DNA of 64,000 nt, from positions 5,493 to 69,492 of the forward strand of contig CANQEO010000004.1 in NCBI GenBank assembly GCA_947595215.1, read 5' to 3'. The translations under genes and the position numbers were made by a program. Positions 3,921 through 64,000 of this stretch are shown piece by piece. This DNA comes from an uncultured Bacilli bacterium. GTDB taxonomy: Bacteria; Bacillota_I; Bacilli_A; RFN20; CAG-449. Under the pieces are notes generated by a model, which saw nothing but the letters and a program-made list of their open reading frames with translations, made no database searches and was not told the DNA's origin. Each line of letters starts with the position of its first letter. Within the stretch, counting starts at the first letter, position 1.

Positions 3921-3924
3921 TAAA

Positions 3925-4128
3925 TCAGTCTTCTTCAGGATTTTCTTCTTCTAGTTCTTCTTGTTGAGATTCGCTAGGAGTGACAATGAGTCTTTCGATA
4001 TTGTCACGAGAAATCTTATCAGGATCTTCAACTTCATTGTCAGTAAGACCTGGAATATAACGGCGTAATAACCAAACGACTAAAGCGATTAAAGCCGCGA
4101 CTCCTAAAAAACCTAAAATCCACCACAT
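3925..4128 (-). CDS. Small single-pass membrane protein with an acidic tail
   Basis: 67 aa: one N-terminal TM helix (WWILGFLGVAALIALVVWLL) and an E/D-rich C-terminus. Tightly packed between the flanking genes. Confidence 0.5.
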   Translation of the reverse strand: MWWILGFLGVAALIALVVWLLRRYIPGLTDNEVEDPDKISRDNIERLIVTPSESQQEELEEENPEED

Positions 4129-4145
4129 AATCTTTACATCCTTTC

Positions 4146-5549: not shown

Positions 5550-5652
5550 TCGATCACCTCATATGCTTATTTTACTTACTTTTGATATATAAGTCCATAC
5601 TAAAACTAATTAATTACTAGTTTTCTACTAACAAATTTTGACCAAAAACCTT

Positions 5653-5683
5653 AAAAAAAGACGAATTTTTTCACTCTTCGTCT
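5653..5683 (-). terminator. Rho-independent terminator overlapping the lepA stop codon
   Basis: On the minus strand: AGACGAA-N11-TTCGTCT followed by a T run. Confidence 0.6.
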
Positions 5684-47019: not shown

Positions 47020-48132
47020 TTATCTTACACCTAATTTTTTCATTAATGCAATTTTATTTTCTATAGGGGTGGTAGTTGGTCTTCCAAGATTCTCCCTAGA
47101 ACCTTGTTTTGTATGTAAAACTAATGCTACTGCATTCTCTTTTTTCAATACAGAAATACCTTTTTTTATTTCATCTTGAGTTGAGGCAATTATTACATTT
47201 TTAAACCCACAAGCCTTAAGAATTGCTGGAATATCTAGTGATTTTGAACAAGTTGGTTGTCCACCGACTGATTCGTGCGCATTATTGTCATTTAGAATAT
47301 ATTTAAAATTATTAGGCATATTAGCAGCAATGACGCCTAAACTTCCCATATGCATAATAAAAGAACCATCACCATCAATGCAATAAACATTCTTATCTGT
47401 TCCAATACTTACCCCATAAGCAATAGAAGCTGTATGTCCCATAGATCCTACAGTAAGAAAATCATTTGCATGACCTTGTTTATTTGCCTCTCTAATTTCA
47501 AAAATCTCACGAGAAGTCTTGCCTGTAGTAGAGACAATTATATCTTCATCAGACAATGAATCTATAATTGCTTTTAAAGCATCTTCTCTAGTCATTGTGT
47601 AGGAAGAGGTTTCTAACTTAATCTTATAATCGGAAAATAATCCTTTTTTAATTACTAAAGCATATGGTTTGTTGTTTTTATTCATGTAATCGATAGCTCT
47701 TGTCAAAGCATCTTGATAATTATCACTCAAAACCTCATAGTCAATTCCCATCGATTGCAATAATGGTATAGTTACTTTTCCTTGTTTTACGTGTTGTGGT
47801 TCATCATGTTTACCTGGTTCACCACGCCATCCAATTATTAAGAGCATTGGAATCGAGTAAACATCTTCATCCGCTAAAGATAATAATGGATTTATAGCAT
47901 TTCCTTCACCTGAGTTTTGCATATAAACACATCCTATCTTTCCAGTTGAAAGATGATAGCCTGCACACATAGCGACAGCATTACCTTCATTAGCGGTAAT
48001 GATATTTTTCTCTTTTGAAGAATTCATTTTAATACATGCACATAAATTCGCCAATAATGAATCAGGCACACCAGCAAAAAAATCAATATTGTTATCACAT
48101 AAATAATCGTAAAACTCTTTTGTGTCAATCAT
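47020..48132 (-). CDS. ppd: Phosphonopyruvate decarboxylase (TPP-dependent)
   Basis: 370 aa with the N-terminus FYDYLCDNNIDFFAGVPDSLL and the TPP-binding GDGSFIMHMG...N motif. Directly downstream of the PEP mutase gene. Confidence 0.85.
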   Translation of the reverse strand: MIDTKEFYDYLCDNNIDFFAGVPDSLLANLCACIKMNSSKEKNIITANEGNAVAMCAGYHLSTGKIGCVYMQNSGEGNAINPLLSLADEDVYSIPMLLIIGWRGEPGKHDEPQHVKQGKVTIPLLQSMGIDYEVLSDNYQDALTRAIDYMNKNNKPYALVIKKGLFSDYKIKLETSSYTMTREDALKAIIDSLSDEDIIVSTTGKTSREIFEIREANKQGHANDFLTVGSMGHTASIAYGVSIGTDKNVYCIDGDGSFIMHMGSLGVIAANMPNNFKYILNDNNAHESVGGQPTCSKSLDIPAILKACGFKNVIIASTQDEIKKGISVLKKENAVALVLHTKQGSRENLGRPTTTPIENKIALMKKLGVR

Positions 48133-48148
48133 AATAACTACTAGCTCC

Positions 48149-49462
48149 TTATTGCTTTGTACCTGGAATAAGTTCTAAAACTTCTTTTATTGAGATACAG
48201 TACTTTTGAGATGCTTCTAATGAACGATGATGTTTTAAAACTTCTTCAGCACAGTTTTTCATTGCAGGATATGCACTTCTTAACATATGGTTTGCATGAA
48301 TTATAATGTTGGCACCCCATTCATGCAATTCTTCTTCAGTGAATTGATTATATGAAGTAGGAACTAAAATGACAGGAATATCTTTAGAGTATTCTCTAAA
48401 TCTTCTCAAAAATTCTTTAATCTCTTGACCATCTTTTTCTTTAGAATGAATCATGATACCATCAGCACAACCTTCTTCGATATAAATCTTTGCTCTCATG
48501 AGGGCTTCCTCAATACCGTAACCGGCAATTAAAGCTTCTATTCTAGCAAAAATCAAGAAATCTTTTGTAACTTGAGCGATTTTACCAGCTTTAATCTTTT
48601 TGGCAAATTCATGTGGATCATCTAATACTTGTTTTGCTTCTGTACCAAACAAAGAATTTTGTTTTAAACCTGTTTTATCTTCAATAATAATTGCAGATAC
48701 TCCTAATCTTTCCAGAGTTCTAACATTATAGGTAAAATGTTCAGTTTTTCCACCAGTATCTCCATCTAAAATAATCGGTTTAGTTGTCACTTCCATTATC
48801 TCTTCGATAGTTCTAAGTCTTGAAGTTAAATCGACTAATTCAATATCTGGTTTACCTTTAAAAGAAGAATCACATAAAGAAGATACCCACATGGCATCAA
48901 ATTCTTTTTGTGTTTCATTATCTTCTTCAACTACTTTAGTATTCTCCACAATTAAACCCGTTAATCCATTGCTAGCTTCCATAACATTAACAAATGGTTT
49001 AAGCGTTAAAAGTTTTCTTAATTTAGCGCGACGATAATCGGGAGTATTTATTAATTCACGATAATTTTGTTCTAGCATAGTACTAGAAATATCTTTTGTA
49101 TAAGGAATTTCGATTAATTTGCCGCCCCAAGTAGCTAATGTATCAATAACTTTTTGGCGAATATTTCTTTGAATACCGGTTCTCCAATCATCGCCATGAA
49201 GAACATAATCAGGTTTTAATGCTATTAAATTATCTGTGTAATCTAATGTAGTTTGCGGAACAACTTTAGTTACACCCTTTATATTTTCAAAGATAATTTT
49301 TCTTTCTTCGTATGATAAAAGAGGCAATCTTTTGTAAGAAGCAATTGCTTCATCGGTTAACAAACCGACAATAACATTTCCCAATTTTATTCCTTCTTTA
49401 ATGATATTGATGTGACCATTATGAATAACATCAGCACTCATAACTATATAAACATTTTTCAT
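48149..49462 (-). CDS. Fusion: HxGH cytidylyltransferase domain (N) + phosphoenolpyruvate phosphomutase (C), Fom1-like architecture
   Basis: N-terminus [18 protein letters not shown] (the CTP-transferase HxGH motif). The C-terminus is ICL/PEP-mutase fold, with DGDTGG and the PepM-diagnostic EDKxxxxxNS present as [13 protein letters not shown]. Confidence 0.88.
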
Positions 49463-51353: not shown

Positions 51354-51590
51354 AGAAAAACCACCTCCATAGATGGCTTCAACCGATTCGCAGAAATTGT
51401 ATTGTTAATAGAAACTCTCCTTTTCTAATCTTTTATATGAAGTTTCTTATCTACGTCTCGGTAGAGTATCTGGTGGTTCCCCTTTGCTAGCGACACTTAT
51501 CTTGCATACACAAGATTTGGAGATGGTTTTGTCTATATGCCAATGCATCAAGACGAAAGAATTATTATCTATAAATTCATTTTTGTAAAT
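51354..51590 (-). ncRNA. Candidate ~240-nt non-coding RNA or leader, delimited by a strong promoter and an intrinsic terminator
   Basis: Promoter on the minus strand: TTGACA (51624-51619), 16 nt spacer, TATAGT (51602-51597). Terminator: CCAUCU-AUGG-AGGUGG plus UUUUU at 51376-51354. The body is noticeably more GC-rich than its flanks and has no ORF of 60 aa or more. I could not assign an RNA class. Confidence 0.4.
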
Positions 51591-51845
51591 AGTAGCACTA
51601 TAAGAATTTTTATCAATTTGTCAACCGATATAATAATCATCTTTTTATAAATTTATTTTCAAAAAATTACAAAAAATGGAAACAAATACTTCGGTGTCTA
51701 TCATCTTGATACACAAAATACAATTCAAAAAGATAATACCATTTCAAGTTATAATTAAAAATTTTGTGACAGGTATGATCCCAAGAAGTCGCGAAATTTA
51801 CAAATTTTTACAAGTAATTTATTAAAAATATCAAATTTTTTTGTC

Positions 51846-51868
51846 AAAAAGTAATCTAAAAAGATTAC
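51846..51868 (-). terminator. Rho-independent terminator after the acetyltransferase gene
   Basis: On the minus strand: GTAATCT-TTTT-AGATTAC followed by TTTTT, beginning 10 nt after the stop codon. Confidence 0.7.
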
Positions 51869-51878
51869 ATTTATTAAA

Positions 51879-52421
51879 TTATTTTATAAATATTGGAATA
51901 TTTAAATGTGAATTGTTATTACTAATTTTTCTTGCCGGAACTCCTCCCCACGTTGTTCCCTCTTCAGTTATGCTTTTTGTAACTACTGCATTTGCTCCAA
52001 TCGCTACATCAGAAGCTATTTTTATATTTCCGATTACTTTACTGCCACTTCCTAATAATATGTTATCTCCAAGAATTGGAACATGATTAGATGGGCCCGA
52101 AGCACCTATTATACATTGAGCATGGATGCGAAGATTTTTACCAACTTTTGCTTTTCCATTTATAAAAATGCATCCTAAATGAGCTATTGATAATCCTGGT
52201 TCACATACATTCAAAGGTATATATGTTATATACTTATTGCTCAATCTATTTAATATAAACTTGTAGATTCGAAATCTTATTCTTTTATTGCAATTATAAA
52301 AATACTCGCAATAACGCAATAATTTAACATATTTAAACTCCTTCGAATTTAAACTTTGATTATTCTCAGAATCTTTCTTAATATATTCTTTTAAATCATT
52401 TTTTGTTTTTATCATAAGCAA
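51879..52421 (-). CDS. Left-handed beta-helix (hexapeptide) O-acetyltransferase, WcaB/CysE-like
   Basis: Hexapeptide repeats (IHAQCIIGASG..., LGDNILLGSGSKVIGNIKIASDVAIGANAVV). Located in the glycan locus. Confidence 0.75.
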   Translation of the reverse strand: MLMIKTKNDLKEYIKKDSENNQSLNSKEFKYVKLLRYCEYFYNCNKRIRFRIYKFILNRLSNKYITYIPLNVCEPGLSIAHLGCIFINGKAKVGKNLRIHAQCIIGASGPSNHVPILGDNILLGSGSKVIGNIKIASDVAIGANAVVTKSITEEGTTWGGVPARKISNNNSHLNIPIFIK

Positions 52422-52534
52422 ATGATAAAAAATATTTTAGTGTAAGACAATGTGTTTGTTATAAAATAAAAGATGTATATCTTTTTTACAATTATAATCA
52501 AAATTAAAAAATAAAGTTTTCAAAATGGAATATC

Positions 52535-54022
52535 TTAATATTTTCTTTGTTTTTTTCGCAGTAATTTTAATAAGTTTTTATTTATTAATAGATTAGTCGA
52601 CAATACAACGACAGAAGAAATAATTGTAAAAATCAAGCCATAAATTATAAAAGTAAAATAATCATTTATATCTGGTTTATAAAAATAATTGACTATAACA
52701 GCTAGAAAAAAAAGTAAGAAATTAAGAATTGCTGTCAAAGTTGTCTTATAACCTTTTCTTTTTAAAATAATTTTATCAGAAATTATGTTTACATAGATAA
52801 CCTTTATTGGAAGAGCTATTACAGTAGCCAATAAAACTCCAATTATACCAATAAATTTTACTAAAATGATAGATAATGACAGATTTATAAAAGCCTCAAG
52901 CAATGAAATATAACTCAATTTTTTAGCATATCCACCCAAGCCACATAGATTTTGACCAACATATCTACTCCAAGAAAACATTTGAACAAGACAAAATAAA
53001 ATAGGTAAACCCGGTATTAAATAATCTATATCATTAACTCCATTTGTATATAATTTAACAAAAGGTATGATTAAAAAATACGAAACTATCATTAGAATTG
53101 AAATCGAGCCACAAATGATAGAATTGAAATTATCATGAATTATCGTATATTTTTCTTTGCTTTCACTGAATGATTGACCAAGTATATGTTGCACGCTTCC
53201 AACACATGCATTTAACAACATATTTAAACTTGCAAAAACTAAATTGTAAACAGAATAAATACTTGCTGTTTCAGTAGAAATAAAAATCGATAAAATAACC
53301 ATATCTGTCGATGAAAAAATAGTCCACGCAATTTCTGTAATAATATATGAATTTCTATCTTTTAATTTTTCATTATTATCATCGGATTTAAAATTAACCC
53401 AAGCATAATGTTTTTTTGCATACAAGTTATAGATTAGTACTTTAATTAATGAAACAATAAAAAAACCAACTTGAATTAATGCAATATTAAATGAGAATAT
53501 AGCTAATAAAATTTTAACAACATAACAAAGTGTTTTAACTAATAAATCCACATTAGCCTTTACATAGTTTCTTCCATCGGCAATAAAAATACAATTCCAT
53601 TTCTCAACGAAATAAAATGATACAACACTTGTAAGTCCTTCAAACAATACATAAATTGCAATTGTCCAATAAGAAACTTTAGTTTTAAGAATAAAAGGTA
53701 ATACAAATGATAAAATAATTATCGTTAAAAGATAAAATATTGTTATTTTCTTAAAATATTTTTTCGAAATACTAAGTACTCTAGAAATATTTTCTTTATC
53801 ATCATTTTTTATATATGGATATAAGGAATTTCTTGTTGCTTGTCCGATACCAGCCTCCAATAATGCCACATAAGAAAAGATTTGAGTTATAGTACTTGTA
53901 AAGCCATTTGTGTCAGATCCATAGTTTAACAAAATAATACGTGGGATTATTAGTCCTAATATAAGAATAATTGATTGACTTATTAAACCAAAAGCAATAT
54001 TTTTAAATGCATTTTTCTTCAT
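52535..54022 (-). CDS. wzx: Wzx-type oligosaccharide flippase (MOP superfamily)
   Basis: Polytopic protein of about 495 aa with roughly 12-14 TM helices. The ATG at 54022 follows GGAGTG; the track start is 54079. Confidence 0.7.
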   Translation of the reverse strand: MKKNAFKNIAFGLISQSIILILGLIIPRIILLNYGSDTNGFTSTITQIFSYVALLEAGIGQATRNSLYPYIKNDDKENISRVLSISKKYFKKITIFYLLTIIILSFVLPFILKTKVSYWTIAIYVLFEGLTSVVSFYFVEKWNCIFIADGRNYVKANVDLLVKTLCYVVKILLAIFSFNIALIQVGFFIVSLIKVLIYNLYAKKHYAWVNFKSDDNNEKLKDRNSYIITEIAWTIFSSTDMVILSIFISTETASIYSVYNLVFASLNMLLNACVGSVQHILGQSFSESKEKYTIIHDNFNSIICGSISILMIVSYFLIIPFVKLYTNGVNDIDYLIPGLPILFCLVQMFSWSRYVGQNLCGLGGYAKKLSYISLLEAFINLSLSIILVKFIGIIGVLLATVIALPIKVIYVNIISDKIILKRKGYKTTLTAILNFLLFFLAVIVNYFYKPDINDYFTFIIYGLIFTIISSVVVLSTNLLINKNLLKLLRKKQRKY

Positions 54023-54932
54023 AATCACTCCAATTAAATCTTTGACACCATTGTTCAAGAGAAAAATATTCAACCACATCTTTTGAATAATCGATAAAAG
54101 GTTTATTCAAAAATGTAATAATTTCCTTATAGTTAAATCCATCCAAAACTAAAATATTATTCGGATTAAAGAATTTTTCATTTAATACATTCTTATTAGT
54201 AGTAATTAATTTCTTATTGAAATATATTGCTTCTTGAATTCTTAACGAATAACCAGCCTGATTAGTTTCAACATCTAATATAGCCTTACTTGAAACAATT
54301 TTTTTTAAGTATTCCTCATAAGGAATATAATTTTCTTGAGATATAGATAAATTTTTGGAAATAGCATTATCACATATAATTGTAAAATCCATTTTCAATA
54401 ACAAATTATTCATAATATTATATAAATCAAATTCATCAATTACTCTTCTTTTATACTTTCCCACAAAACAAATATCAAATTTTATATCAGTTTTTGGAAA
54501 ATCCTTTTTAAAATATGGCAAGGGATTATAAAGCAACTTGTATTTTTGACAATCAATAATGTCAAATGAGGAAATAAGAAAATTTGTTTTCTTCTTCAAT
54601 TGCTCTATTTTTTTTTCGGCTGACTTAGCAGAAGTAGAATTCATAAAGTAAAAAACCATTTTTTTTCTTAAACTTAGTTTTGATAGATATTTTAATATTT
54701 GCTTATTTTGTAAACAACTATCTAAAATAATTATTTGATCATACTTTTTTATAATTTTTAAATTGATATTGTAACAAAAACTAGGAATCGGAAGTTTGAA
54801 TTTACAACAAAATCTTTTTATAAAATAAAAAATTTTAGATTCATTAAAAATTTCAATTACTTTAAAATTTTTCAAATTAACAAAATTGAAAAAGTAATCA
54901 TCATGATTTAATTTAACAATTAATGTAGTCAT
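54003..54932 (-). CDS. Hypothetical transferase-like protein (C-terminal half resembles the GT-B / Glyco_trans_1_2, CgeB-like fold)
   Basis: Pattern DICFVGKY...R....L........Y.EYLKKIVSSKAILDV.......YSLRIQEAIYFNKKLITT, typical of a GT-B C-terminal Rossmann half. The N-terminal half is unassigned. Confidence 0.35.
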   Translation of the reverse strand: MTTLIVKLNHDDYFFNFVNLKNFKVIEIFNESKIFYFIKRFCCKFKLPIPSFCYNINLKIIKKYDQIIILDSCLQNKQILKYLSKLSLRKKMVFYFMNSTSAKSAEKKIEQLKKKTNFLISSFDIIDCQKYKLLYNPLPYFKKDFPKTDIKFDICFVGKYKRRVIDEFDLYNIMNNLLLKMDFTIICDNAISKNLSISQENYIPYEEYLKKIVSSKAILDVETNQAGYSLRIQEAIYFNKKLITTNKNVLNEKFFNPNNILVLDGFNYKEIITFLNKPFIDYSKDVVEYFSLEQWCQRFNWSDYEEKCI

Positions 54933-56184
54933 ATTTTTTTCTCCTTTTCGAAAAATTCATATTTAAATATGTAATACCAATTAGTCCAGGATAGAATAAA
55001 TCGGTTTGTGCTAAAGTAGTATTTAAGAACAAAAATATAAATAATAGTAAAAGAGAATATTTTCTATTTAAGAAATAAGGATATAGTAACCAAATAATAA
55101 CTAAAATTAGTGCAACAACACCATAAACCACACCAAAGCTTAAGATACTGGCAGCAACGTAACCAGTCCCTTTTATTAAAGCAGTAAAATTGTTATAACC
55201 AATTCCAAATGGATTTTTTATCATAGAATCTACGCACAATTCTATCATTCCAATACGATAATATCCTGTATCTATAGTTAAGTCTAATTGACCATTAGAA
55301 AATACTTTACCTATAAAATTTTCATATATTAAACTATTTTCACCTCTTATAGCAAAATCAAATACTGCAATTAATAAAATTAAAAGTAATATAAACACAA
55401 AAATATTTTTTTGCATTGACTTATACTTCCTATTAAAAATATAAAAGATGGCTAAAATTAAGAAACTAATGAATCCAGTCGTAGACTGACATGACAAAAG
55501 ACATAATAACGCTACAATTAACGTTTGGTTTCTTAAACTCTTATCTCCTATGTAATCGCTTTTAAATAACACAATATACAAAATAAAGTTTATCATTATC
55601 TGATAAACACCGGGTTCAGTATAAATTCCACAATTTCTATAAGGATGAAGATTGGCATTATACGTATATAATATAAAACCTCTACTATATTCGTATTTTT
55701 CATAACCTGCAACACCCCATTTAGCAGTTAAATATTCATGAAAAATTGACATTTGAAAAAAACTTGGAAAAATAAGTTGAATAATGAAAAAAAGTAAACT
55801 TATCCCAAAAAAGAATTTAGCACATTTTGCTAACCTCGTACAAAACATTTTTTTATTTATGTTTATTGCAGCATTACATATTAATATTCCATTCAAAAAA
55901 TCAATTGTCCCTTTTACTCCGATACCACCTACCATCAATCGACCGAAAAATGTTATTATTGTCAATATAAATAAAATTGCTAATGTATAATTATTCCTAA
56001 TCCCTTTATTCAATAAAGTAACTGCCAATAAAAAAATAAAAATCACAATTTTAACTATTGACGGAATAACCTTTGCATACAAAGAACTTCCTGGTATATA
56101 TAAAAACATTATGATGAGTAAATATTGCAAAAGCTCGGATACTTTAATTGAAGATAACTTTTCTTTTAACATCAATTTTTCCAT
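54913..56184 (-). CDS. wzy: Wzy-like polysaccharide polymerase / O-antigen ligase-like polytopic membrane protein
   Basis: 423 aa with about 10-12 TM helices and one larger loop. Adjacent to the flippase gene. Confidence 0.55.
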   Translation of the reverse strand: MEKLMLKEKLSSIKVSELLQYLLIIMFLYIPGSSLYAKVIPSIVKIVIFIFLLAVTLLNKGIRNNYTLAILFILTIITFFGRLMVGGIGVKGTIDFLNGILICNAAININKKMFCTRLAKCAKFFFGISLLFFIIQLIFPSFFQMSIFHEYLTAKWGVAGYEKYEYSRGFILYTYNANLHPYRNCGIYTEPGVYQIMINFILYIVLFKSDYIGDKSLRNQTLIVALLCLLSCQSTTGFISFLILAIFYIFNRKYKSMQKNIFVFILLLILLIAVFDFAIRGENSLIYENFIGKVFSNGQLDLTIDTGYYRIGMIELCVDSMIKNPFGIGYNNFTALIKGTGYVAASILSFGVVYGVVALILVIIWLLYPYFLNRKYSLLLLFIFLFLNTTLAQTDLFYPGLIGITYLNMNFSKRRKKYDYINC

Positions 56185-56487
56185 AGTTAGATTTATTCTT
56201 TCCTCCGATGCAATACTTTCTATTGTGAATATTCTTTTCTCTTTAAATAGAGATTATTTTTCAAATATAGATTAATCAGCTCTTTATTTATTATAAACAA
56301 CTAGCATTCAATTAAAAAGGATAAAATAATTTTTATAATAATATGAAAGAAATTATATCATAATACTTTTTTCCATATTAACTTAAAATCAACTATAAAA
56401 AACCACTTTTTTTACTTTGTAACGCTGCTCGAAACAAATTATAAAGCAACAATTGACATTTTCTTTGCTATAGTTCCTCTTAAAATA

Positions 56488-57525
56488 TTACGCATCTTTC
56501 TTTTCTTTAGGTTTGTAATTTCTTTCTAACCAATTCATATATTCTCCAGATTCGACATTTTGAATCCAATCTTGATGTTCAAGGTTCCATTTAATAGTAG
56601 CTTGAATTCCAGTATCAAAATTATGCTTCGGTTTCCAACCTAATTCGGATTCTATTTTTGTAGGATCCATCGCATATCGTAAATCATGACCCGGACGATC
56701 TTTTACGTAACTTATTAACGATTCAGGTTTACCTAGTGTTTTTAAAATCGTTTTTACAACCTCTAAATTGGTCTTTTCATTATGTCCACCAATATTATAT
56801 ATCTCTCCATTGCGACCATTTCTAACAATCAAATCAATTGCAGTACAATGATCTTCAACATATAGCCAGTCTCTAACATTGCTACCATTACCATATACTG
56901 GTAAAGGTTCATTTTTTAGGGCCTTTTGAATCATTAATGGAATTAATTTTTCAGGAAAATGATATGGTCCATAGTTATTTGAACACCTTGAAATAGTTAC
57001 TGGTAAATTATAAGTTCTATGATATGCTAAAACTAACAAGTCTGCGCTTGCTTTAGATGCGCTATATGGACTTGAAGTATGTAGAGGAGTATCTTCATGG
57101 AAAAACAAATCAGGTCTATCTAGTGGTAAATCTCCATATACTTCATCTGTAGAAACTTGATGATATCTTTTTATACCATATTTTCTACATGCATCCATTA
57201 AAACTTGAGTTCCTAAAATATTTGTCTTCAAGAAAATTTCAGGATTTTCAATTGAACGATCCACATGAGACTCAGCCGCAAAGTTAATGACATAATCAAA
57301 ATTTTCCTCTTTAAATATTTTATATATGGCTTCACGATTACAAATATTTTCATGTATAAATTTAAAATTTGGTTTATTTAAAATAGGACCTAAAGTCTCC
57401 ATATTACCAGCATATGTTAAGGCATCAATGCATACAAAAAAATCATTCGGATATTTGTCAACCATAATGTGAAGGTAATTTCCACCTATAAAACCAGCTC
57501 CACCACTTACTAAAAATTTTGCCAT
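56488..57525 (-). CDS. rfbB: dTDP-glucose 4,6-dehydratase
   Basis: GGAGFIGGN, the YSASKASAD catalytic motif, and an extended-SDR layout over 345 aa. Confidence 0.9.
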   Translation of the reverse strand: MAKFLVSGGAGFIGGNYLHIMVDKYPNDFFVCIDALTYAGNMETLGPILNKPNFKFIHENICNREAIYKIFKEENFDYVINFAAESHVDRSIENPEIFLKTNILGTQVLMDACRKYGIKRYHQVSTDEVYGDLPLDRPDLFFHEDTPLHTSSPYSASKASADLLVLAYHRTYNLPVTISRCSNNYGPYHFPEKLIPLMIQKALKNEPLPVYGNGSNVRDWLYVEDHCTAIDLIVRNGRNGEIYNIGGHNEKTNLEVVKTILKTLGKPESLISYVKDRPGHDLRYAMDPTKIESELGWKPKHNFDTGIQATIKWNLEHQDWIQNVESGEYMNWLERNYKPKEKKDA

Positions 57526-57664
57526 ATAAATCTCCTTTATATTTAAGCTATTAAAGCCATTTCGAATAATTGTATCATGTTATTTATGCATTGTCAAATT
57601 TTACAGATTAAGGTAATACCATTGCGTCAATATTTAGTCAAAGTTAAAAGTTGTATTAATGTAG

Positions 57665-58579
57665 TTATATTTTCAAATTCTTTTTTAACCAAGTAGCTGT
57701 TTTTAAAATTGATTCTTTAAAATCACTTTTTGGAGTAAAACCGGTGTCCTCTCGAAGTGCCTTTAAATTAATTAACGAATAATTTATAGCGTTCGTATCA
57801 GCATAAACGCCAAAATTCAATACTCCATTAGGATTTACAAAATCTCGAATACTTCTAAAAATTGTTCCAAACGTAGAAATGGTATCGTGACCAATATAGT
57901 ATGTTTTCTGATTTATACCTTTCTCGCCAATCGCATAGAATGCTCTTGCAACATCTTCAACGTAAATTAAATCGTATGGAGTATCATCGGGAATTAAATT
58001 TGACGGATTATTTTTTAATAGATTTTCTAATACAATATTAGGTATCATTTTAGATTTATTATTTTCGCCATAAACCATTGCAATTAATCCACAATTAAAC
58101 TCTATGTTATTTTGATATGCCAATGTTTTACAAATCATTTCTGCTGAAAGTTTACAAGTAGCATAAACATTAGTATAGCGCGGTTCAAAAGAATCTAATG
58201 ACATATAGTGACGCGTTTCTAACACATTAACAGAAGAAGCTAAGATAAACTTTTTACAACTCAAATTTTTTGCAATCATTAATGCATCACATGCATATTT
58301 ACAATTTAAAAGTTGCAATTCATAATTTTTAAATGCTTCTCCGAATACTCCATTCCAAGCTAGATGGTAAAAACAATCTAAGTTTCTCGGTAATTTATCT
58401 TTTAAAATATAGTACTCTTCAAAATAAGCTTTAATAAAGTGTAATTTATCACATTTTAAACTATTTAAACGATCTTCATCAGTACCAACCGCATACACTT
58501 CGACACCTTGTTTTAAAAGATATTCAACTAAGCGAGACCCAATAAATCCAGTTGCACCAGTTACACAAACCGCTTTCAT
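57665..58579 (-). CDS. NAD(P)-dependent extended SDR (epimerase/dehydratase family); predicted dTDP-4-keto-sugar 4-ketoreductase
   Basis: VTGATGFIGSRL and YATCK (YxxxK). Its position follows the epimerase gene in the deoxysugar operon. Confidence 0.65.
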   Translation of the reverse strand: MKAVCVTGATGFIGSRLVEYLLKQGVEVYAVGTDEDRLNSLKCDKLHFIKAYFEEYYILKDKLPRNLDCFYHLAWNGVFGEAFKNYELQLLNCKYACDALMIAKNLSCKKFILASSVNVLETRHYMSLDSFEPRYTNVYATCKLSAEMICKTLAYQNNIEFNCGLIAMVYGENNKSKMIPNIVLENLLKNNPSNLIPDDTPYDLIYVEDVARAFYAIGEKGINQKTYYIGHDTISTFGTIFRSIRDFVNPNGVLNFGVYADTNAINYSLINLKALREDTGFTPKSDFKESILKTATWLKKNLKI

Positions 58580-59146
58580 TTAATTATTTTCCTTCATGGT
58601 AAAATTGACATCGCTATCTTTTAAATAAGGAGCGGTAATATCCTTTTGTGAAACAATCGGATTATCACAACCCCAAGGAATATTAATCTCAGGATCATCC
58701 CATTTTATAGAACGATCAAGTTTAGGTTCATAGAGTCCATCAACTTTGTAAAGAACTTCACACTCATCAACCAAAGTTATAAAAGCATGACCAAAACCCG
58801 ATGGAATAAGGATTTGTTTTCTATTTTCTTTACTTAATTCGACACAAACCCACTTTTTAAAAGTAGGTGAATCTTTTCTTAAATCAACAGCATAATCCAT
58901 TACTTTTCCATTGGTGCAACGTACTAACTTTGCTTGAGGAACAGGATTGTTTTGAAAATGAATACCGCGAATAGTACCCTTTTTTATTGAATATGAATGA
59001 TTATCTTGGACAAAATCCAAATTTATCCCCAGATTTAATAACGTTCTTTTCGAATAAACTTCACTATAATATCCGCGATAATCTTCAAAATAATCCGGTT
59101 CGATAACTTTTACACCTAATCCAATTTCTGTAATTTTAGCACCCAT
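58580..59146 (-). CDS. dTDP-4-keto-6-deoxyhexose 3,5-epimerase (RmlC-like cupin)
   Basis: FEDYRGYY, RGIHFQ and GFGHAF motifs. The ATG at 59146 follows GGAGG; the track start is 59170. Confidence 0.85.
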   Translation of the reverse strand: MGAKITEIGLGVKVIEPDYFEDYRGYYSEVYSKRTLLNLGINLDFVQDNHSYSIKKGTIRGIHFQNNPVPQAKLVRCTNGKVMDYAVDLRKDSPTFKKWVCVELSKENRKQILIPSGFGHAFITLVDECEVLYKVDGLYEPKLDRSIKWDDPEINIPWGCDNPIVSQKDITAPYLKDSDVNFTMKENN

Positions 59147-59147
59147 T

Positions 59148-60170
59148 TTAAATGTCCTCCTTAAATTCATCTACTAACTTAGATTGAATAACTAAATTTT
59201 TATAATTTTCATCTCTAATTTTATCATCATAAATACATTTTATAAAGTGTTCTATTGATTTTCTAAAAGAATCGTCGGCAGGAAGTTTTACTTTATTTGT
59301 TTCATTTCCTAATGTTATTGTGACTAAAGGCTCAAAATTATCAGGAGCAGTTAATATTCTATTTGTGTAAATAGTTCCTTTTGATCCCCAAATTTCTAGT
59401 TCACATTTGTAAGAATTGTCCATTCCGAAAGATACTTGACAAATAGTTCCTTCATCATTTACTAGTGTACCACTACCATATATATCGACATCAAAATTAT
59501 CTACATAATTTAATTGATGCGTTACCAATCTAGCTGATGAACCTAATAGTCGTGTTGCTAATTTTAAGGTATAGCCACCACAATCTAATAATGCACCACC
59601 ACCTAGATTTTTATTGTATCGAAAATCATTTTTTCCTCTAAATGGAAAGCCAAAAGCAATTCTAATTAACCTTGTACTTCCGAACGATTCTTTCCTTATT
59701 TCATTTTCAATAAATTCTATTTGACTATGGAAATTAAACATATAATTTTCGTGGAGAGCTAACTTATTTTCTTTTGCAATATCGACTAATTCTGTAGTAT
59801 CTGTTAATTGTGTAGTCGATGGTTTTTCAACAAAAACATGCTTACCATTTTCTAGAGCCAATTTCGCCCATTTAAAGTGAAGCGCAGGTGGTAATGGAAT
59901 ATATACTGCATCTATTTTATCACTCTTTAATAATGATTCGTAACTATCAAATATTTCTCCACCATATGATTCTTTAAATTTTAATGCTTTATCATACTCT
60001 ATTTTTAAGATATTTAAATCATTGTTGGGAGAGGTTTTTCCAAACCATTCTTCTTCGTTTGCAGCAGCAATACCGATATATTCTATATCTTCTACTTTTT
60101 TTAGAGCGGGCATAAATCTTCTGAATGCAATTTCAGAAGGGCATAGAATTGCTAATCTTATTTTTGTCAT
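59148..60170 (-). CDS. Gfo/Idh/MocA-family oxidoreductase; predicted NDP-hexose 3-ketoreductase
   Basis: N-terminal Rossmann fold and the EKP motif (VFVEKPST). Lies immediately downstream of the 2,3-dehydratase gene, as in deoxysugar clusters. Confidence 0.7.
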   Translation of the reverse strand: MTKIRLAILCPSEIAFRRFMPALKKVEDIEYIGIAAANEEEWFGKTSPNNDLNILKIEYDKALKFKESYGGEIFDSYESLLKSDKIDAVYIPLPPALHFKWAKLALENGKHVFVEKPSTTQLTDTTELVDIAKENKLALHENYMFNFHSQIEFIENEIRKESFGSTRLIRIAFGFPFRGKNDFRYNKNLGGGALLDCGGYTLKLATRLLGSSARLVTHQLNYVDNFDVDIYGSGTLVNDEGTICQVSFGMDNSYKCELEIWGSKGTIYTNRILTAPDNFEPLVTITLGNETNKVKLPADDSFRKSIEHFIKCIYDDKIRDENYKNLVIQSKLVDEFKEDI

Positions 60171-60171
60171 A

Positions 60172-61542
60172 TTATACCTCCAATAAAGATAACAGATTTC
60201 TCAATTGAATATTTAAAGTATTATTAACTTGTTGCAATAGATTTAGTGTGCGATAATCTACCCAAAAATATCCTTCGGGCATGGAAGTAATTTCTTCTTT
60301 TGCAACTTCAATAATGATATTTCTATTTTGTTCATGATAGAATCTTCCGCCCTCTTCTGACAGCAATACATCATGAATAACATGTTTATCATCTATCAAT
60401 TTACAAAACATTTCTTCAATATTGTTTTTAACAATTTCATTTGCTTCTAATTGAACGCTAGGACCCAGTTCAATTAAATCTAAATTTCCGACCTCATGCT
60501 TAGCGTGAACTAGAAATTCTCTCTTGCCATTGTTCTTTCTAGTTATTAATCCAAACATCGCAATTCCATTAGCTTCGAACAATGGCTGCTGCCAATGTTT
60601 AACTTCTCTTCCTTCTATTGAAATATCACAAAATACAACTTTAAAATGGTAGTTGCTTAAACATGAAAATTCATTATCTGACATTTTCCAATTGGATAAT
60701 GAAAATAAAGGTACTAATTCCGTAGAAAAATTACTAAACATTTTAAAATCATTAACATAATGATAAATTGTAGAAACAATATTTTCATCATCTTCATTAA
60801 ATATTGAACGACATAACTCTTTATCGCTAAATAACTGTTCTACTTCAGCATATTTTATACCGTAAAGACTATAAGGAATGCAAGACAATACAGTTCTAGT
60901 ATCCATATTAACTAAATTATCAATTTTCATTAGTTTTTTTATCTGTCCCAATGTCATCCATTTATGTGAAGGCAAAACTTCTATATCTTCATCAACATAA
61001 ATTATAATATTTCTATTTCTCTTTTTTAGAAATCTTGCTCCTTGTTCAGATTGAATTTGATCAACAATTATTTTATAGTTTGCGGCATTAATAAAGTAAT
61101 CTAAGTATGCAGGACGATTACCTCCATGCTTTTGAGTAAAATTAGATTTAGTTGCTTGAATAGTTGGTGAAATTTGTATTTTATTTAAATTACCTGGTTC
61201 AATCTTTGCTTGCATCAAAAAATGAATAGTTCCATTAATTTCTTTACATATGATGCCTAAAAAACCAATCTCATCTTGTATGATAATTGGTTGTGAGACA
61301 ACTATTTTATCATCATTTTTAATTTTTAAACCTGTAATTGAAAAGAAACTGCTATTTTTATTAACAATTTTTCCGGTTTTATCATCATAAAACCATTGAT
61401 TGCATGCATCAAAAGAAATTTTATCTATTAGTACTTGCGTATTCTTATTCTTTTCATCAACCCAGTCTAGGATATTATCGATAGAATTAATACCTTTTAT
61501 ATTGGACCAAGAATAAACTATTTTTCTTATTATATCTCGCAT
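60172..61542 (-). CDS. NDP-hexose 2,3-dehydratase (two-domain EvaA/OleV-type)
   Basis: Duplicated domain with the signatures QAKIEPGN...SPTIQATKSNFTQKHGG...QSEQGARF in the first half and LSEEGGRFYHEQNRN in the second. Confidence 0.85.
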   Translation of the reverse strand: MRDIIRKIVYSWSNIKGINSIDNILDWVDEKNKNTQVLIDKISFDACNQWFYDDKTGKIVNKNSSFFSITGLKIKNDDKIVVSQPIIIQDEIGFLGIICKEINGTIHFLMQAKIEPGNLNKIQISPTIQATKSNFTQKHGGNRPAYLDYFINAANYKIIVDQIQSEQGARFLKKRNRNIIIYVDEDIEVLPSHKWMTLGQIKKLMKIDNLVNMDTRTVLSCIPYSLYGIKYAEVEQLFSDKELCRSIFNEDDENIVSTIYHYVNDFKMFSNFSTELVPLFSLSNWKMSDNEFSCLSNYHFKVVFCDISIEGREVKHWQQPLFEANGIAMFGLITRKNNGKREFLVHAKHEVGNLDLIELGPSVQLEANEIVKNNIEEMFCKLIDDKHVIHDVLLSEEGGRFYHEQNRNIIIEVAKEEITSMPEGYFWVDYRTLNLLQQVNNTLNIQLRNLLSLLEV

Positions 61543-61553
61543 ATTGAAACCTT

Positions 61554-62438
61554 TTAATAAATAATTTTTCCTTTTGCAACGTTAAGTAAATGCTCTCCAT
61601 ATTGGTTTTTCGCCATTGACTTTCCAATTTCTATTAATTGATCTTTGGTAATCCATCCGTTTTTGTATGCAATTTCTTCAGGACAGCACACTTTTATTCC
61701 TTGATGATCCTCTAAAATTTTAATATAGTTAGATGCATCAACCAAAGATTCATGCGTTCCAGTATCTAACCAAGAATATCCTCTTCCAAGAGTAGTAACA
61801 TGTAATTTATTTTGTTCAAGATACATATTATTCAAAGATGTAATTTCATACTCCCCTCTTTCAGAAAGCGGAACCGACTTAGCTAATTTGGTGACTCCTT
61901 TTGGATAAAAGTATAATCCTGTAACACAATAATTCGATTTAGGATTTTTTGGTTTTTCTTCAATAGAGATTGCATTATTATTCTCATCCAATTCAACAAT
62001 CCCATATCTTTCTGGGTCTTTAACAAAGTATCCATAAATAGTAGCACAATCCTCATTCGCTCTTGATACAGAATTTTTTAAATGTTTAATTAATCCTGCA
62101 CCATAGAAGATATTATCTCCTAATATCAGTGCACAAGAATCATCTCCAATAAACTCTTCTCCAATAATAAAAGCTTGTGCTAATCCATCAGGAGAAGGTT
62201 GTATTGCATACGATAAATTTATTCCAAACTTAGAACCGTCTCCTAATAATGCTTGAAAGCGAGGAGTATCCGTTGGAGTAGAAATAATTAAAATATCTTT
62301 AATGCCAGCCATCATCAAAGTACTTAATGGATAATAAATCATAGGTTTGTCGTAAACCGGTAATAATTGTTTCGAAGTAACCAGTGTTAATGGGTAAAGT
62401 CTAGTTCCAGATCCACCAGCTAATATAATTCCTTTCAT
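61554..62438 (-). CDS. rfbA: Glucose-1-phosphate thymidylyltransferase
   Basis: [18 protein letters not shown] and full-length RmlA similarity. The ATG at 62438 follows GGAGG; the track start is 62462. Confidence 0.92.
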
Positions 62439-62550
62439 ATTCATTTCCTCCATTTTGTACACATAATCAATATTAATGTATCATAATTAGACTAATCTTT
62501 GTATAAAAAATAAAATAATCAACAATTCAAAGCAAATATATAGAAATATT

Positions 62551-63723
62551 TTATTTTAGTTTATCTTCTAAATATTTTTTTATAATTTCAAACTTTTGAA
62601 AAGTACTTTCTATAACCAAATCCATATTATAATATTTATATTCAGCTAAACGTCCACATAAAAAGATATTATGATATTTTTTTGACTCATTGTAATATTT
62701 TTCATAAATATCCATATTAGTTTTATTTATTACAGGGTAACATGGGATATTTCTTTTGGGATTAGATATATCATAGTCATGAGGATATTCTGTTACCACT
62801 ACTGTATCCGATTTATTGGAGCAATTAAAACTAAAATATTTATATTCAGTACTTCGTGTATAGCCTTTTGCCTGCGGATAAGAAATAATCTCACACGGCA
62901 AATATTTATCACATTTATAATACTGATGCTTAAATTCTAATGTTCGATAAGGTAGCTTACCAAATTTAAAATTAAATAACTCATCTATACCACCAGTATA
63001 AATTAGCAAATCCACTTCTTCTTCATCAAAAAGCACTTTTTCATCTAAGAATCTAATATGTTCAATTGCATCAACACTAGTATGCAGGTGAATCTTTTCG
63101 TGATTTAACATATTTAAAAACAAAGCACTAAATCCGTTTTTTGGCAAAAATTGAAAATCTTTATTTAAATATCGCGAATCAAACCCAATACAAAATTGAA
63201 CTCTATTAATAACACTCCTATCAATTTGATCAATTGGGATTCCCCATTGTTTGGAACTATATGTCTTAAATGCTTTCTCATATAATAAATTTGCAAAATG
63301 TACAATGTTCTCATTTCCACACTCTAATAGTTCATACATTGTAACTCTATCTCTTCCTTTAAAAAGAGTTCTCATATCCTTAATAATCGATTCAGATTCT
63401 TTGTAACCAACAAGCTGTTGTATCGATGTAAAATTATATGGCAATCTTACATATTTATCATCGATGTAACTAAGCAAACTGCAATTGTATGGAATCATTT
63501 CAGAATATTTCGATAAATAATCAATTATCCAATAATTATTAGTATTCAAAAAATGTGGTCCATATTTTTGCACCATTATTCCATACTCATCTTCATAATC
63601 ATACATGTTGCCACCAACTACATCTCTTTTTTCAATCAGTTCCACATCATAATTTAATTCTTCAGCAATCCTTCTTGCCATTATGCTTCCAGAAAAACCA
63701 GTCCCAACAATAATAATTTTCAT
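62551..63723 (-). CDS. glf: UDP-galactopyranose mutase
   Basis: FAD-binding site IIIVGTGFSGS; 390 aa with a Glf-like layout (YGPHFLNT, YTRSTEYKYF). Confidence 0.88.
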   Translation of the reverse strand: MKIIIVGTGFSGSIMARRIAEELNYDVELIEKRDVVGGNMYDYEDEYGIMVQKYGPHFLNTNNYWIIDYLSKYSEMIPYNCSLLSYIDDKYVRLPYNFTSIQQLVGYKESESIIKDMRTLFKGRDRVTMYELLECGNENIVHFANLLYEKAFKTYSSKQWGIPIDQIDRSVINRVQFCIGFDSRYLNKDFQFLPKNGFSALFLNMLNHEKIHLHTSVDAIEHIRFLDEKVLFDEEEVDLLIYTGGIDELFNFKFGKLPYRTLEFKHQYYKCDKYLPCEIISYPQAKGYTRSTEYKYFSFNCSNKSDTVVVTEYPHDYDISNPKRNIPCYPVINKTNMDIYEKYYNESKKYHNIFLCGRLAEYKYYNMDLVIESTFQKFEIIKKYLEDKLK

Positions 63724-63747
63724 ATATCTATACTCCTAGAACATTTT

Positions 63748-64000
63748 TTAAGATGATTTACTATCAACATTAATTATTTGACCCAGTTGTTGTGCCATAT
63801 TTTCTATAGTGAAATGACTTTTAAAATAATTATATGCTTTATTTTCCAAACGAGATAAATCAATCATTCCAGTTTCAATTTTACCAATTAAATCTTGAAA
63901 ACTTTGCGAATCCTTTTTTACAATAATGCAATTTTCTCCGTCAACTGCATAATCTTTAATACATTCATTTTCGACTACAATAATCGCTTTTTCCATTTTT
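63748..64000 (-). CDS. Glycosyltransferase family 1, C-terminal fragment (the reading frame stays open to the right edge)
   Basis: C-terminal GT1 pattern (IVVENECIKDYAVDGENCIIVKKDS...). The frame is still open at base 64000. Confidence 0.5.
   Translation of the reverse strand, partial: KMEKAIIVVENECIKDYAVDGENCIIVKKDSQSFQDLIGKIETGMIDLSRLENKAYNYFKSHFTIENMAQQLGQIINVDSKSS

Follow-up and report, generated by a model that had tools for sequence, protein, structure and literature searches.

A predicted dTDP-2,6-dideoxyhexose pathway and an adjoining Glf-family mutase in a capsule locus of an uncultured Firmicute

Introduction

The enzymes that form dTDP-2,6-dideoxy-L-hexoses are best known from antibiotics. 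In actinomycetes, OleS/E/V/W/L/U of the oleandomycin pathway (L-olivose) and KijD5/D4/B1/D10/D11/C2 of the kijanimicin pathway (L-digitoxose, i.e. 2-deoxy-6-deoxy-L-altrose) comprise the same six enzyme classes, acting in the same chemical order. Digitoxose is also found in the S-layer O-glycan of Tannerella forsythia, a protein O-glycan of a Gram-negative host, where it is reportedly a pyranose. In Escherichia coli O52, Fcf1 and Fcf2 form dTDP-D-fucofuranose by means of a dTDP-6-deoxyhexose 4-ketoreductase and, subsequently, a Glf-family dTDP-sugar pyranose/furanose mutase; this pair resembles the arrangement described here, but the O52 route has neither a 2-deoxygenation nor an epimerase. 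In the capsule locus of Campylobacter jejuni HS:41, a nucleotidyltransferase, a 4,6-dehydratase, an RmlC-like epimerase and an SDR C4-reductase are accompanied by the mutase HS41.17, which acts on CDP-6-deoxy-L-altrose and CDP-D-fucose and is a published precedent for a Glf-type mutase using a 6-deoxy-L-sugar nucleotide.

Here we analyse a 64,000-nucleotide stretch of DNA (the window) from an uncultured, small-genome, low-GC Firmicute. Positions 56488-63723 are best explained as a seven-gene nucleotide-sugar unit inside a Wzx/Wzy-type capsule locus. The predicted product is a dTDP-2,6-dideoxyhexose that feeds a surface glycan, a reading to which we assign a probability of about 0.78.

Results and discussion

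All six open reading frames of the pathway are intact and lie on the minus strand, as do all genes and sites given coordinates below. The first-pass annotation had assigned them to a complete dTDP-2,6-dideoxyhexose pathway. This observation is confirmed by a strong family match for each gene, with RmlA, RmlB, RmlC and the dehydratase exceeding curated cut-offs and with catalytic residues invariant across 10-20 homologues of the cassette enzymes, while the interpretation is partly supported. From rmlA through the SDR gene the gaps are only 0-11 nt, and no terminator-like sites were found in 51500-64000. A 139-bp intergenic gap precedes rmlB and contains a promoter-like site (57569..57597; TTGACA-17-TACAAT with TG, 11/12 consensus matches), which is a lead only, because consensus matches across the whole region occur at chance level.

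The first gene, rmlA (61554..62438), encodes a glucose-1-phosphate thymidylyltransferase (TIGR01207, 465 bits; cut-off 361). Its reading frame extends as far as a GTG at 62462 and the TIGR01207 alignment begins at residue 10 of this longer frame; the ATG at 62438 agrees with the length of the homologues (288-294 aa). The next gene (60172..61542) encodes a two-domain NDP-hexose 2,3-dehydratase of the EvaA/OleV/KijB1 type. A profile search had been proposed as the check on this 456-aa protein, and it matches PF03559 in two stretches (E 2e-130), while the alignment with EvaA (4j7g, E 1e-82), a relative of OleV and KijB1, includes both halves. The motifs QAKIEPGN and SEEGGRF are present, and E115 and E166, corresponding to the catalytic E139 and E190 of EvaA, are invariant in 20/20 homologues. 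It is followed by a Gfo/Idh/MocA sugar 3-ketoreductase of the KijD10/OleW type (59148..60170) with both the N- and the C-terminal GFO_IDH_MocA domains. This protein is far closer to KijD10 (3rbv, E 1e-53 over 280 residues) than to the next Gfo protein (1e-22), and K116 of its EKP motif (K102 in KijD10), D196 and Y200 are invariant in 20/20 homologues. The last gene of the block, rmlB (56488..57525), encodes a dTDP-glucose 4,6-dehydratase (TIGR01181, 469 bits; cut-off 365).

The two enzymes encoded between the ketoreductase gene and rmlB differ from their actinomycete counterparts. The dTDP-4-keto-sugar 3,5-epimerase (58580..59146, alternative start 59170; TIGR01221, 198 bits; cut-off 156) is of the housekeeping RmlC type and not of the EvaD/NovW type, its top PDB matches being genuine RmlC proteins (3ryk, 2.6e-51), well above NovW (2e-26) and EvaD (1e-21); H71, K81, Y141 and D177 are invariant in 10/10 homologues. 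The candidate dTDP-4-keto-2,6-dideoxyhexose 4-ketoreductase (57665..58579; PF01370, Epimerase, E 2.5e-29) is an extended SDR, not RmlD, and belongs to an uncharacterised group. Its GATGFIG motif and Y139xxxK143 are invariant in 11/11 homologues, and it aligns end to end (32% identity, E 3e-46) with the SDR that fills the C4-reductase slot in an HS:41-type CDP pathway locus. The slot after RmlC is occupied in the same way in nine further cassettes.

The housekeeping type of RmlC, the uncharacterised family of the SDR and an upstream GT4 with a DUF1972 domain, of the kind found in rhamnosyltransferases, would fit a supply of ordinary 6-deoxy-L-hexose such as L-rhamnose or 6-deoxy-L-talose by RmlA, RmlB, RmlC and the SDR, with the dehydratase/ketoreductase branch being minor, silent or inactive. 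We consider this improbable. The dehydratase and ketoreductase genes are intact, with invariant catalytic residues, are packed between rmlA and rmlC and are conserved together in 19/19 foreign loci; the close homologues of the SDR likewise sit in dehydratase/ketoreductase cassettes. No RmlD was found above the cut-off in the 65% of the genome examined, nor in any cassette examined; an RmlD, or a canonical UDP-galactopyranose mutase, may lie in the remainder of the genome.

Taking profile or structure-relative matches and conserved catalytic residues as the basis for each step, we propose the following route. RmlA and RmlB would form dTDP-4-keto-6-deoxy-D-glucose, from which the EvaA-type dehydratase would strip the 2-hydroxyl group to give the 3,4-diketo sugar. 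The KijD10-type reductase is expected to reduce C3, leaving the 3-OH equatorial if it acts as KijD10 does, and the RmlC-type enzyme would then epimerise C5 and possibly C3. Reduction of C4 by the SDR would yield a dTDP-2,6-dideoxy-L-hexose of the olivose, oliose or digitoxose type. The locus is best read as supplying such a sugar to a surface glycan; the configuration at C3, C4 and C5 cannot be predicted from the sequence. All six enzyme classes of the Ole/Kij-type route to dTDP-2,6-dideoxy-L-hexose are present, so that this part of the “L-olivose-like” product proposed in the first-pass annotation stands, but olivose itself is not decidable, the final epimer being set by the 4-ketoreductase and not by the epimerase.

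The dTDP-4-keto-2,6-dideoxy intermediate could instead be processed outside the block to an amino, branched or trideoxy sugar, by the radical SAM/SPASM protein encoded in the same locus or by an aminotransferase or methyltransferase encoded elsewhere; sister cassettes in other genomes do carry aminotransferases, and in locus L137 a DegT gene lies near such a cassette. This appears very improbable, since the block already contains a dedicated 4-ketoreductase candidate, and neither it nor the 8 kb upstream of it holds a gene for an aminotransferase, a C- or O-methyltransferase or a 3-dehydratase.

The genes around the cassette agree with the surface-polysaccharide setting that had been suggested for it. 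Downstream of rmlB lie a candidate Wzy-like polymerase (54913..56184) with about nine hydrophobic segments, matching PF04932 with 28 bits and therefore under the cut-off of 31.7, and a WaaS/CpsH-family glycosyltransferase (54003..54932; NF053598, 149 bits; cut-off 60). They are followed by a polytopic membrane protein with at least nine hydrophobic segments (52535..54079), a candidate Wzx-type flippase that gave no Pfam or NCBIfam match in profile searches and is weakly similar (23%, E 9e-4) to a Polysacc_synt-like protein encoded in the Coprobacillus cateniformis locus, and by a hexapeptide-repeat acetyltransferase (51879..52421; PF00132). At the other end, the C-terminal part of a GT-B-like glycosyltransferase of 339 aa with weak Glycos_transf_1 similarity (63748..64000; L016 41-1060) reaches the window end, and both this gene and the capsule locus run past it. 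Upstream of the GT-B-like gene follow a GT4, the radical SAM/SPASM gene, LicD, another GT4, the GT4 with DUF1972, Bac_transf, which is the priming transferase of a Gram-positive Wzx/Wzy-type capsule locus, and CpsB. A glycosyltransferase of the locus would add the dideoxy sugar to a repeat unit, which would then be flipped by the Wzx-like and polymerised by the Wzy-like protein. Phosphonate genes are also present in the locus, and together with the acetyltransferase and LicD they suggest that O-acetyl and phosphonate groups may decorate the same glycan. The setting differs from that of the actinomycete Ole/Kij genes, which belong to polyketide/aglycone clusters in hosts other than low-GC Firmicutes, and from that of the T. 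forsythia protein glycan, with which a surface 2,6-dideoxyhexose, here predicted, is shared.

The seventh gene (62551..63723), 88 bp upstream of rmlA, encodes a Glf-family FAD pyranose/furanose mutase (PF03275), for which the actinomycete Ole/Kij pathways have no attached counterpart. With 340 bits it exceeds the TIGR00031 equivalog cut-off, the profile annotation being UDP-galactopyranose mutase (UGM), and it shares the fold family of the bacterial UGMs of Klebsiella pneumoniae (2bi7/3int), Deinococcus radiodurans (3hdq) and E. coli (1i8t), with PDB matches from 7e-62 to 2e-49. From the presence of glf, galactofuranose had been predicted as a constituent of the glycan, which our results render doubtful. 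The protein is 48-69% identical to cassette-embedded Glfs but shares only 29-41% identity with Glfs encoded in 25 related genomes; these form a different branch. In our tree its clade is monophyletic (SH-aLRT 100) and sister to the CDP-pathway group of HS:41-type mutases (support 98-99). When loci were picked via Glf and then checked for the cassette, 7/7 samples of the clade lay inside a cassette, against 0/78 of the more distant Glfs; the clade was found only embedded in dTDP-2-deoxy cassettes. This cassette-bound branch is the new point of our analysis. Such a clade could also arise if an ordinary UGM were inherited together with the cassette.

The substrate pocket points in the same direction as the tree. 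In comparison to canonical UGMs, N270, which hydrogen-bonds uracil, is replaced by Ser, and H63, F186, Dr-D212 and N84 are replaced by Asn, Leu, Lys and Cys; F62 and Q264 are both Leu. All seven positions are replaced in 11/11 clade members, that of N84/H109, which hydrogen-bonds galactose in UGM, being taken by a small hydrophobic residue, and the substitution signature is found in 120/120 of the closest database homologues. Among 79 other Glfs and the four crystallised UGMs, Asn270 and the residues of the galactose pocket (His63, Phe186, Asp212 and Asn84/His109) hardly vary. The flavin and diphosphate residues are retained, as are H60, Y155, W160, R174, Y185 and R280. TIGR00031 cannot tell substrates apart, because the mutase of the HS:41-like CDP-6-deoxyhexose locus L084, with substitutions of a similar kind (N270 to Ala, N84 to Leu), passes it as well.

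Thus, the window Glf is probably not an ordinary UGM. We put at close to even odds that it would convert the dTDP-2,6-dideoxyhexose to a furanose, in a role like that of HS41.17, instead of making UDP-galactofuranose; the end product may then be a dTDP-2,6-dideoxyhexofuranose, comparable to the HS:41 pathway. The window route would differ from HS:41 in using dTDP in place of CDP and in the inserted 2,3-dehydratase and 3-ketoreductase, so that its sugar would lack the 2-OH. Rated at somewhat under even odds is an ordinary UGM next to a pathway for a pyranose dTDP-2,6-dideoxy-L-hexose, both donors serving one conserved repeat-unit motif with galactofuranose and dideoxyhexose and therefore moving together. 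The TIGR00031 score and the complete set of UGM flavin and diphosphate residues speak for it, as does the common grouping of nucleotide-sugar genes in capsule loci; the loss of the uracil and galactose contacts throughout the clade and the separate branch of the relatives' own Glfs speak against it. A further point against it is the translational coupling of glf with the SDR or the dehydratase gene in other clade members; in the window glf is uncoupled from both, which counts against the furanose step. Four close six-gene cassettes (L001, L035, L036 and L038) are without any Glf, which speaks for the ordinary UGM, and the mutase is therefore optional.

The cassette is not a rarity and its setting is not exceptional, although 2,6-dideoxy sugars had first been regarded as rare in envelope glycans, where the digitoxose of T. 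forsythia was already known. The ketoreductase gene directly follows the dehydratase gene in all 19 foreign loci, including those of Clostridium innocuum, C. cateniformis and a C. difficile strain, and four other genomes belonging to the same class show the complete gene order. Cassettes recur in many surface-glycan loci of Firmicutes, Bacteroidota and other groups, so that a set of 2-deoxy sugar genes associated mainly with antibiotics is widespread yet unstudied in gut bacteria.

Enzymes of the deoxysugar cassette

Seven open reading frames, all running in one direction, occupy positions 56488-63723 on the minus strand. Six of them (rmlA, 2,3-dehydratase, 3-ketoreductase, rmlC, SDR and rmlB; 56488-62438) had been assigned to a dTDP-2,6-dideoxyhexose pathway in the first-pass annotation. 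This gene set was confirmed, each ORF being present where it had been placed and matching its family, and the shorter ATG starts chosen there for rmlA and rmlC agree with profile alignments and homologue lengths. RmlA (TIGR01207, 465 bits vs. 361), RmlB (TIGR01181, 469 bits vs. 365) and RmlC (TIGR01221, 198 bits vs. 156) score above the equivalog cut-offs.

The 456-aa 2,3-dehydratase scores 433 bits on the hexose-dehydratase profile PF03559 (cut-off 25; E = 2e-130), where two matching stretches correspond to two tandem Nudix-like domains, and its alignment with EvaA (E = 1e-82) spans both halves. To our knowledge, EvaA is the only 2,3-dehydratase with a solved structure. Glu139 and Glu190 in pocket A of EvaA were named essential in a 2022 review of nucleotide-sugar dehydratases; they align with E115 (AKIEPGN) and E166 (QSEQGA) of the window protein, which are invariant in 20 of 20 homologues. 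By family, the protein is an EvaA-type NDP-hexose 2,3-dehydratase, predicted to convert dTDP-4-keto-6-deoxyglucose to the 3,4-diketo-2,6-dideoxy sugar.

The 340-aa 3-ketoreductase (59148-60170, minus strand) carries the N- and C-terminal domains of the Gfo/Idh/MocA family (PF01408 and PF22725) and is closest to the proven sugar 3-ketoreductase KijD10 (1e-53), the next Gfo relative following at 1e-22. Its residues K116, D196 and Y200 correspond to KijD10 Lys102 (EKP motif), Asp182 and Tyr186 and are invariant in 20/20 homologues. The roles of Asp182 and Tyr186 are said to have been described by Kubiak and Holden in 2011. The catalytic role of Lys102 is taken from the literature on 2,6-dideoxysugar pathways. 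The N-terminal dinucleotide motif reads ILCPSEIAFRRF and not GxGxxA; the same form occurs in 11 of the 20 cassette homologues, while the remaining ones have G(A/T)(S/A)DIA in this position. The subfamily to which the window protein belongs is marked by a conserved I/L-C-P-S-E-I-A-F/Y-R-R-F where a glycine-rich dinucleotide motif is usual, and also by some 20 inserted residues (EEWFG...) not found in the G(A/T)SDIA-type cassette homologues.

In RmlC, the catalytic set H71, K81, Y141 and D177 is invariant in 10/10 sequences, and the best PDB matches are genuine RmlC proteins (2.6e-51), well ahead of the mono-epimerases EvaD and NovW. The 304-aa SDR is of the extended type, with GATGFIG, Y139 and K143 (YxxxK) conserved in 11/11 sequences and S116 at a position occupied by T in 9 of the 11. 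Within the deoxysugar operon its gene takes the place of the 4-ketoreductase, a slot that is conserved in other cassettes. An assignment as RmlD was rejected, as PF04321 reached 19.6 bits against a cut-off of 27 and TIGR01214 gave no match; nor was an RmlD above cut-off found in the assembled genome (65% complete) or in the related cassettes inspected. A PDB search with the SDR returned distant epimerases and dehydratases only (best 1e-11), and database names are generic. We regard the SDR as a candidate non-RmlD extended-SDR 4-ketoreductase. In all four tailoring enzymes the catalytic residues are invariant among cassette homologues.

Taken as a pathway, these enzymes would yield a dTDP-2,6-dideoxyhexose, a product to which we assign a probability of about 0.8-0.85. 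KijD10-type reductases generate an equatorial 3-OH, as on the L-digitoxose route, the axial alternative being made by a different enzyme. The RmlC-like character of the epimerase favours an L-sugar. According to a deoxysugar review, OleL leads to L-olivose together with OleU and to L-digitoxose together with EryBIV. Since its product differs with the partner reductase, it is the 4-ketoreductase that selects the epimer, and for this reason L-olivose, as deduced from the presence of a true RmlC, was dropped.

Distribution of the cassette

Clustered at 90%, the database relatives of the 2,3-dehydratase number more than 7,700, and at 50% clustering 667 clusters fall below 1e-30. The closest 120 relatives share 57-69% identity over the full length and derive largely from gut and rumen metagenomes. 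Within the phylum of the window bacterium the enzyme is sporadic (3 of 61 relatives, 8 of 401 genomes). The ketoreductase gene directly follows the dehydratase gene in 19 of 19 foreign loci, and the complete order rmlA-dehydratase-ketoreductase-rmlC-SDR-rmlB is shared by an Erysipelotrichales MAG and by three further genomes from the class, with 35-91% identity per protein. Further carriers are Coprobacillus cateniformis, Clostridium innocuum, a C. difficile assembly, Desulfosporosinus, Ruminiclostridium, Bacteroides and Flavobacteriales, all with the cassette in glycan-type contexts. Conserved pairing and order, invariant catalytic residues and the broad range of carriers indicate that the cassette is real, under selection and mobile. 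At the genomic level it is not a rarity.

2,6-Dideoxy sugars are viewed as typical of actinomycete antibiotics and of plant cardiac glycosides, and 2-deoxy glycosides are very acid-labile. Due to this lability they would be missed by routine composition analysis. The 2022 review places 2,3-dehydratases in antibiotic pathways only, and among the 24 monosaccharides in a 2025 review of commensal gut glycans there is no 2,6-dideoxyhexose. A precedent on a surface glycan is the S-layer O-glycan of Tannerella forsythia, which contains the 2,6-dideoxyhexose digitoxose; the genes for digitoxose are not discussed there. The earlier statement that 2,6-dideoxy sugars are rare in envelope glycans thus holds for the known chemistry, but not for the genomes, in which the cassette is common, and it has to accommodate the T. 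forsythia digitoxose. If our reading is true, 2,6-dideoxy sugars would be a regular building block of the surface glycans of gut and rumen Firmicutes. Such a sugar could bear on phage receptors, immune recognition and the glyco-engineering of deoxysugar donors.

In the C. difficile assembly, the cassette adjoins the cwp84 region and an ABC transporter. This locus (L018; GCA_052076475.1, JBQJGB010000005.1:242831-264222) contains an embedded glf and gtrA and is part of a glycan cluster of the S-layer region, where it is flanked by an ABC-transporter/glycosyltransferase block on one side and by a Cwp84-like gene on the other. The cluster is unlike the published C. difficile SLCT-11 locus as described in the literature. 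A gene for a small GtrA-family membrane protein directly follows the cassette glf in three ABC-transporter-type loci (L018, L023 and L137), so that the two form a recurrent pair.

A cassette-bound clade of Glf-like mutases

The seventh gene, glf (62551-63723, minus strand), had been read as an ordinary UDP-galactopyranose mutase (UGM) gene supplying galactofuranose. Counting the window, glf lies within or beside the dTDP block in six of the first 20 cassettes; it is absent from four close six-gene cassettes. The window Glf shares 50-57% identity with cassette-embedded Glfs of distant taxa and 29-41% with those of related genomes; 25 of 60 such genomes have a Glf, in no case beside a cassette. 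A scan of metagenome contigs that started from Glf returned 80 loci. In the two nearest (67% and 48% identity) glf is embedded in the cassette, and the other 78 (34-42%) are without a dehydratase. In five further look-ups among the closest database homologues glf was embedded in all five, giving 7/7 in total; for one of these, the Glf of C. innocuum, the assembly index gives 991 blocks. In C. innocuum, glf and the SDR gene have 4 nt in common, and in the nearest subclade of the window Glf there is a 13-nt overlap between glf and the dehydratase gene; in the window, 88 bp separate glf from rmlA.

In a maximum-likelihood tree of 90 Glfs, the 11 cassette-linked proteins form one clade (SH-aLRT 100) with an eight-member group as sister (99), and the 71 others stand apart (98). 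Adjacency of glf to the cassette by chance was rejected, as the Glfs of the relatives belong to a different branch and distant Glfs never occur with the cassette. A cassette-bound clade could in principle also come about through co-inheritance. As a separate observation, the Glf homologues in three genomes of relatives (G018:C12:1296-2390, G011:C35:897-1991 and G041:C108:10631-11707) contain one in-frame TAA each in an otherwise full-length match, which may be due to pseudogenisation, to assembly errors or to another cause.

The Glf alignment was mapped to Klebsiella pneumoniae UGM numbering and to published active-site tables. The flavin and diphosphate residues H60, Y155, W160, R174, Y185 and R280 are kept in 11/11 clade members, and the window Glf passes the UGM profile TIGR00031 (340 bits vs. 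304). The uracil- and galactose-pocket residues common to crystallised UGMs are replaced in all 11 and kept in 64-79 of 79 other Glfs. Asn270, which hydrogen-bonds to uracil and is present in 71/79 other Glfs, is Ser in 11/11 clade members; His63 (77/79) is Asn or Thr; Phe186 (79/79) is Leu or Ile; and Deinococcus radiodurans Asp212 (76/79) is Lys. The position of Asn84/His109, with its hydrogen bond to galactose (His or Asn in 67/79), is occupied by Cys, Ala, Thr, Ile or Val. The window Glf has S281, N60, L186, K188 and C81 at these positions, respectively, and F62, H55 and Q264 are likewise replaced in the clade. In window numbering the signature is Q52, L59, N60, L186, K188, L275 and S281, with minor variants at some positions. 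It occurs in 120/120 of the closest database homologues and is carried by at least 120 sequence clusters.

Of the reading as an ordinary glf, the GLF fold, the flavin and diphosphate residues and the TIGR00031 match stand, whereas Asn270, His63, Phe186 and Asn84/His109 do not. Because the uracil and galactose pockets are replaced, we do not file the protein as a UGM, although it should be UGM-like in mechanism.

In the sister group of the clade, N270 is changed to Ala or Val and N84 to Leu. A complete five-gene CDP pathway with a Glf-like mutase was observed on metagenome contig Ga0134090_1000029 (L084, 6632-11155), encoding a Glc-1-P cytidylyltransferase, a CDP-glucose 4,6-dehydratase, an SDR, an RmlC-like epimerase and the mutase. 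Its gene architecture is of the Campylobacter jejuni HS:41 type, a pathway in which HS41.17 is the mutase (PMC12369002). The L084 mutase has Ala for Asn270 and Leu for Asn84, yet it scores above the TIGR00031 cut-off for "UDP-galactopyranose mutase". A mutase of a CDP pathway thus passes the profile, which is therefore blind to substrate, an annotation pitfall through which this equivalog profile over-annotates. The window SDR shares 32% identity over its full length (E = 3e-46) with the L084 SDR that occupies the C4-reductase position, far better than with any PDB relative. Like an HS41.17-type mutase, the window Glf has a cassette context (7/7) and an altered base and sugar pocket, and its clade is sister to the CDP group. 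By context and pocket changes it is a candidate HS41.17-type NDP-6-deoxyhexose pyranose/furanose mutase.

Proposed pathway and ring form

We propose that the block follows the HS:41 logic, but with a dTDP-linked 2-deoxy sugar. RmlA and RmlB would act first, the 2,3-dehydratase and the 3-ketoreductase would remove the 2-OH, the RmlC-type epimerase and the SDR would set C5 (possibly C3) and C4, and the dedicated mutase would probably contract the ring. L-Digitoxose is the 2-deoxy form of 6-deoxy-L-altrose; because of this, the product would be dTDP-L-digitoxofuranose if the SDR and the epimerase act as in HS:41. Our analysis shows to which families the proteins belong, which residues are conserved, how the genes are linked and how the Glf clade is structured; from this we infer all activities, the ring form, the stereochemistry and the incorporation into the capsule repeat.

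The furanose step itself we consider close to an even bet. With slightly greater reserve, we suggest that the window Glf may be the first to be recognised of a large clade of mutases that interconvert the pyranose and furanose forms of a dTDP-2,6-dideoxyhexose, and that a 2,6-dideoxyhexofuranose may occur on the surface of the window bacterium, of cultured gut bacteria, C. innocuum and C. cateniformis among them, and of some C. difficile strains. One candidate for this sugar, by analogy, is L-digitoxofuranose, which corresponds to the 6-deoxy-L-altrofuranose in C. jejuni HS:41 without its 2-OH. A dideoxyhexofuranose was not found in any glycan in the literature searched, which is a weak negative. 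Such a sugar would be destroyed by standard acid hydrolysis and could therefore have been overlooked.

The annotation is sound on the sequence evidence: the module is widespread and its product predicted, with an apparently neofunctionalised mutase clade as an added twist. From this cassette-bound clade follows a testable prediction, namely that the UGM family includes a further, new substrate specificity, and with C. innocuum and C. cateniformis as cultured carriers the chemistry is open to direct test.

Operon layout and the surrounding capsule-type locus

From rmlA through the SDR gene the intergenic gaps measure 0-11 nt. A scan of 51500-64000 found no terminator-like sites, and promoter matches in this region were at chance level overall; the operon structure is thus read from gene spacing only. 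A promoter-like site of the extended -10 type, close to consensus (TTGACA-17-TACAAT with TG; 57569-57597, minus strand), was noticed in the 139-bp gap between the SDR gene and rmlB, which may have a separate promoter.

Downstream of the cassette are genes for a Wzy-like membrane protein, a WaaS/CpsH glycosyltransferase, a polytopic membrane protein that matches no profile and a hexapeptide acetyltransferase, and phosphonate genes. The window (C4:5493-69492) belongs to an assembly of 24 contigs and 851 kb that is 65% complete. The 8 kb past the window end (L016, C4:69200-77626) begin with the remainder of a GT-B-like transferase gene, followed in turn by genes for a GT4, a radical SAM/SPASM protein, LicD, a second GT4, a GT4 that carries DUF1972, the priming enzyme Bac_transf and CpsB; CpsA/C/D were not seen up to the end of the contig. 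CpsB, Bac_transf, four GT4-like genes and the WaaS/CpsH glycosyltransferase are clear capsule components, and the surroundings are a Gram-positive capsule-type locus. The surface-polysaccharide setting proposed earlier is thus borne out by CpsB, Bac_transf and the glycosyltransferases, but less so in its wzx/wzy part: the Wzy-like protein stays below the Wzy_C cut-off (28 bits vs. 31.7), and the Wzx candidate, without a profile match, is recognised by membrane topology only. A Pfam and NCBIfam search returned nothing for the 514-aa and 414-aa proteins.

Three genes on the minus strand of L016 deserve mention. The LicD-family gene (3551-4363), in the same capsule locus just past the window end, could encode the missing transferase for the phosphonate from the genes at window positions 45196-49462. 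The radical SAM/SPASM gene (2377-3537) is without an obvious role. The GT4 at 5573-6682 carries an N-terminal DUF1972, a domain known from streptococcal rhamnosyltransferases, and is a candidate transferase for a 2-deoxy analogue of an L-6-deoxyhexose.
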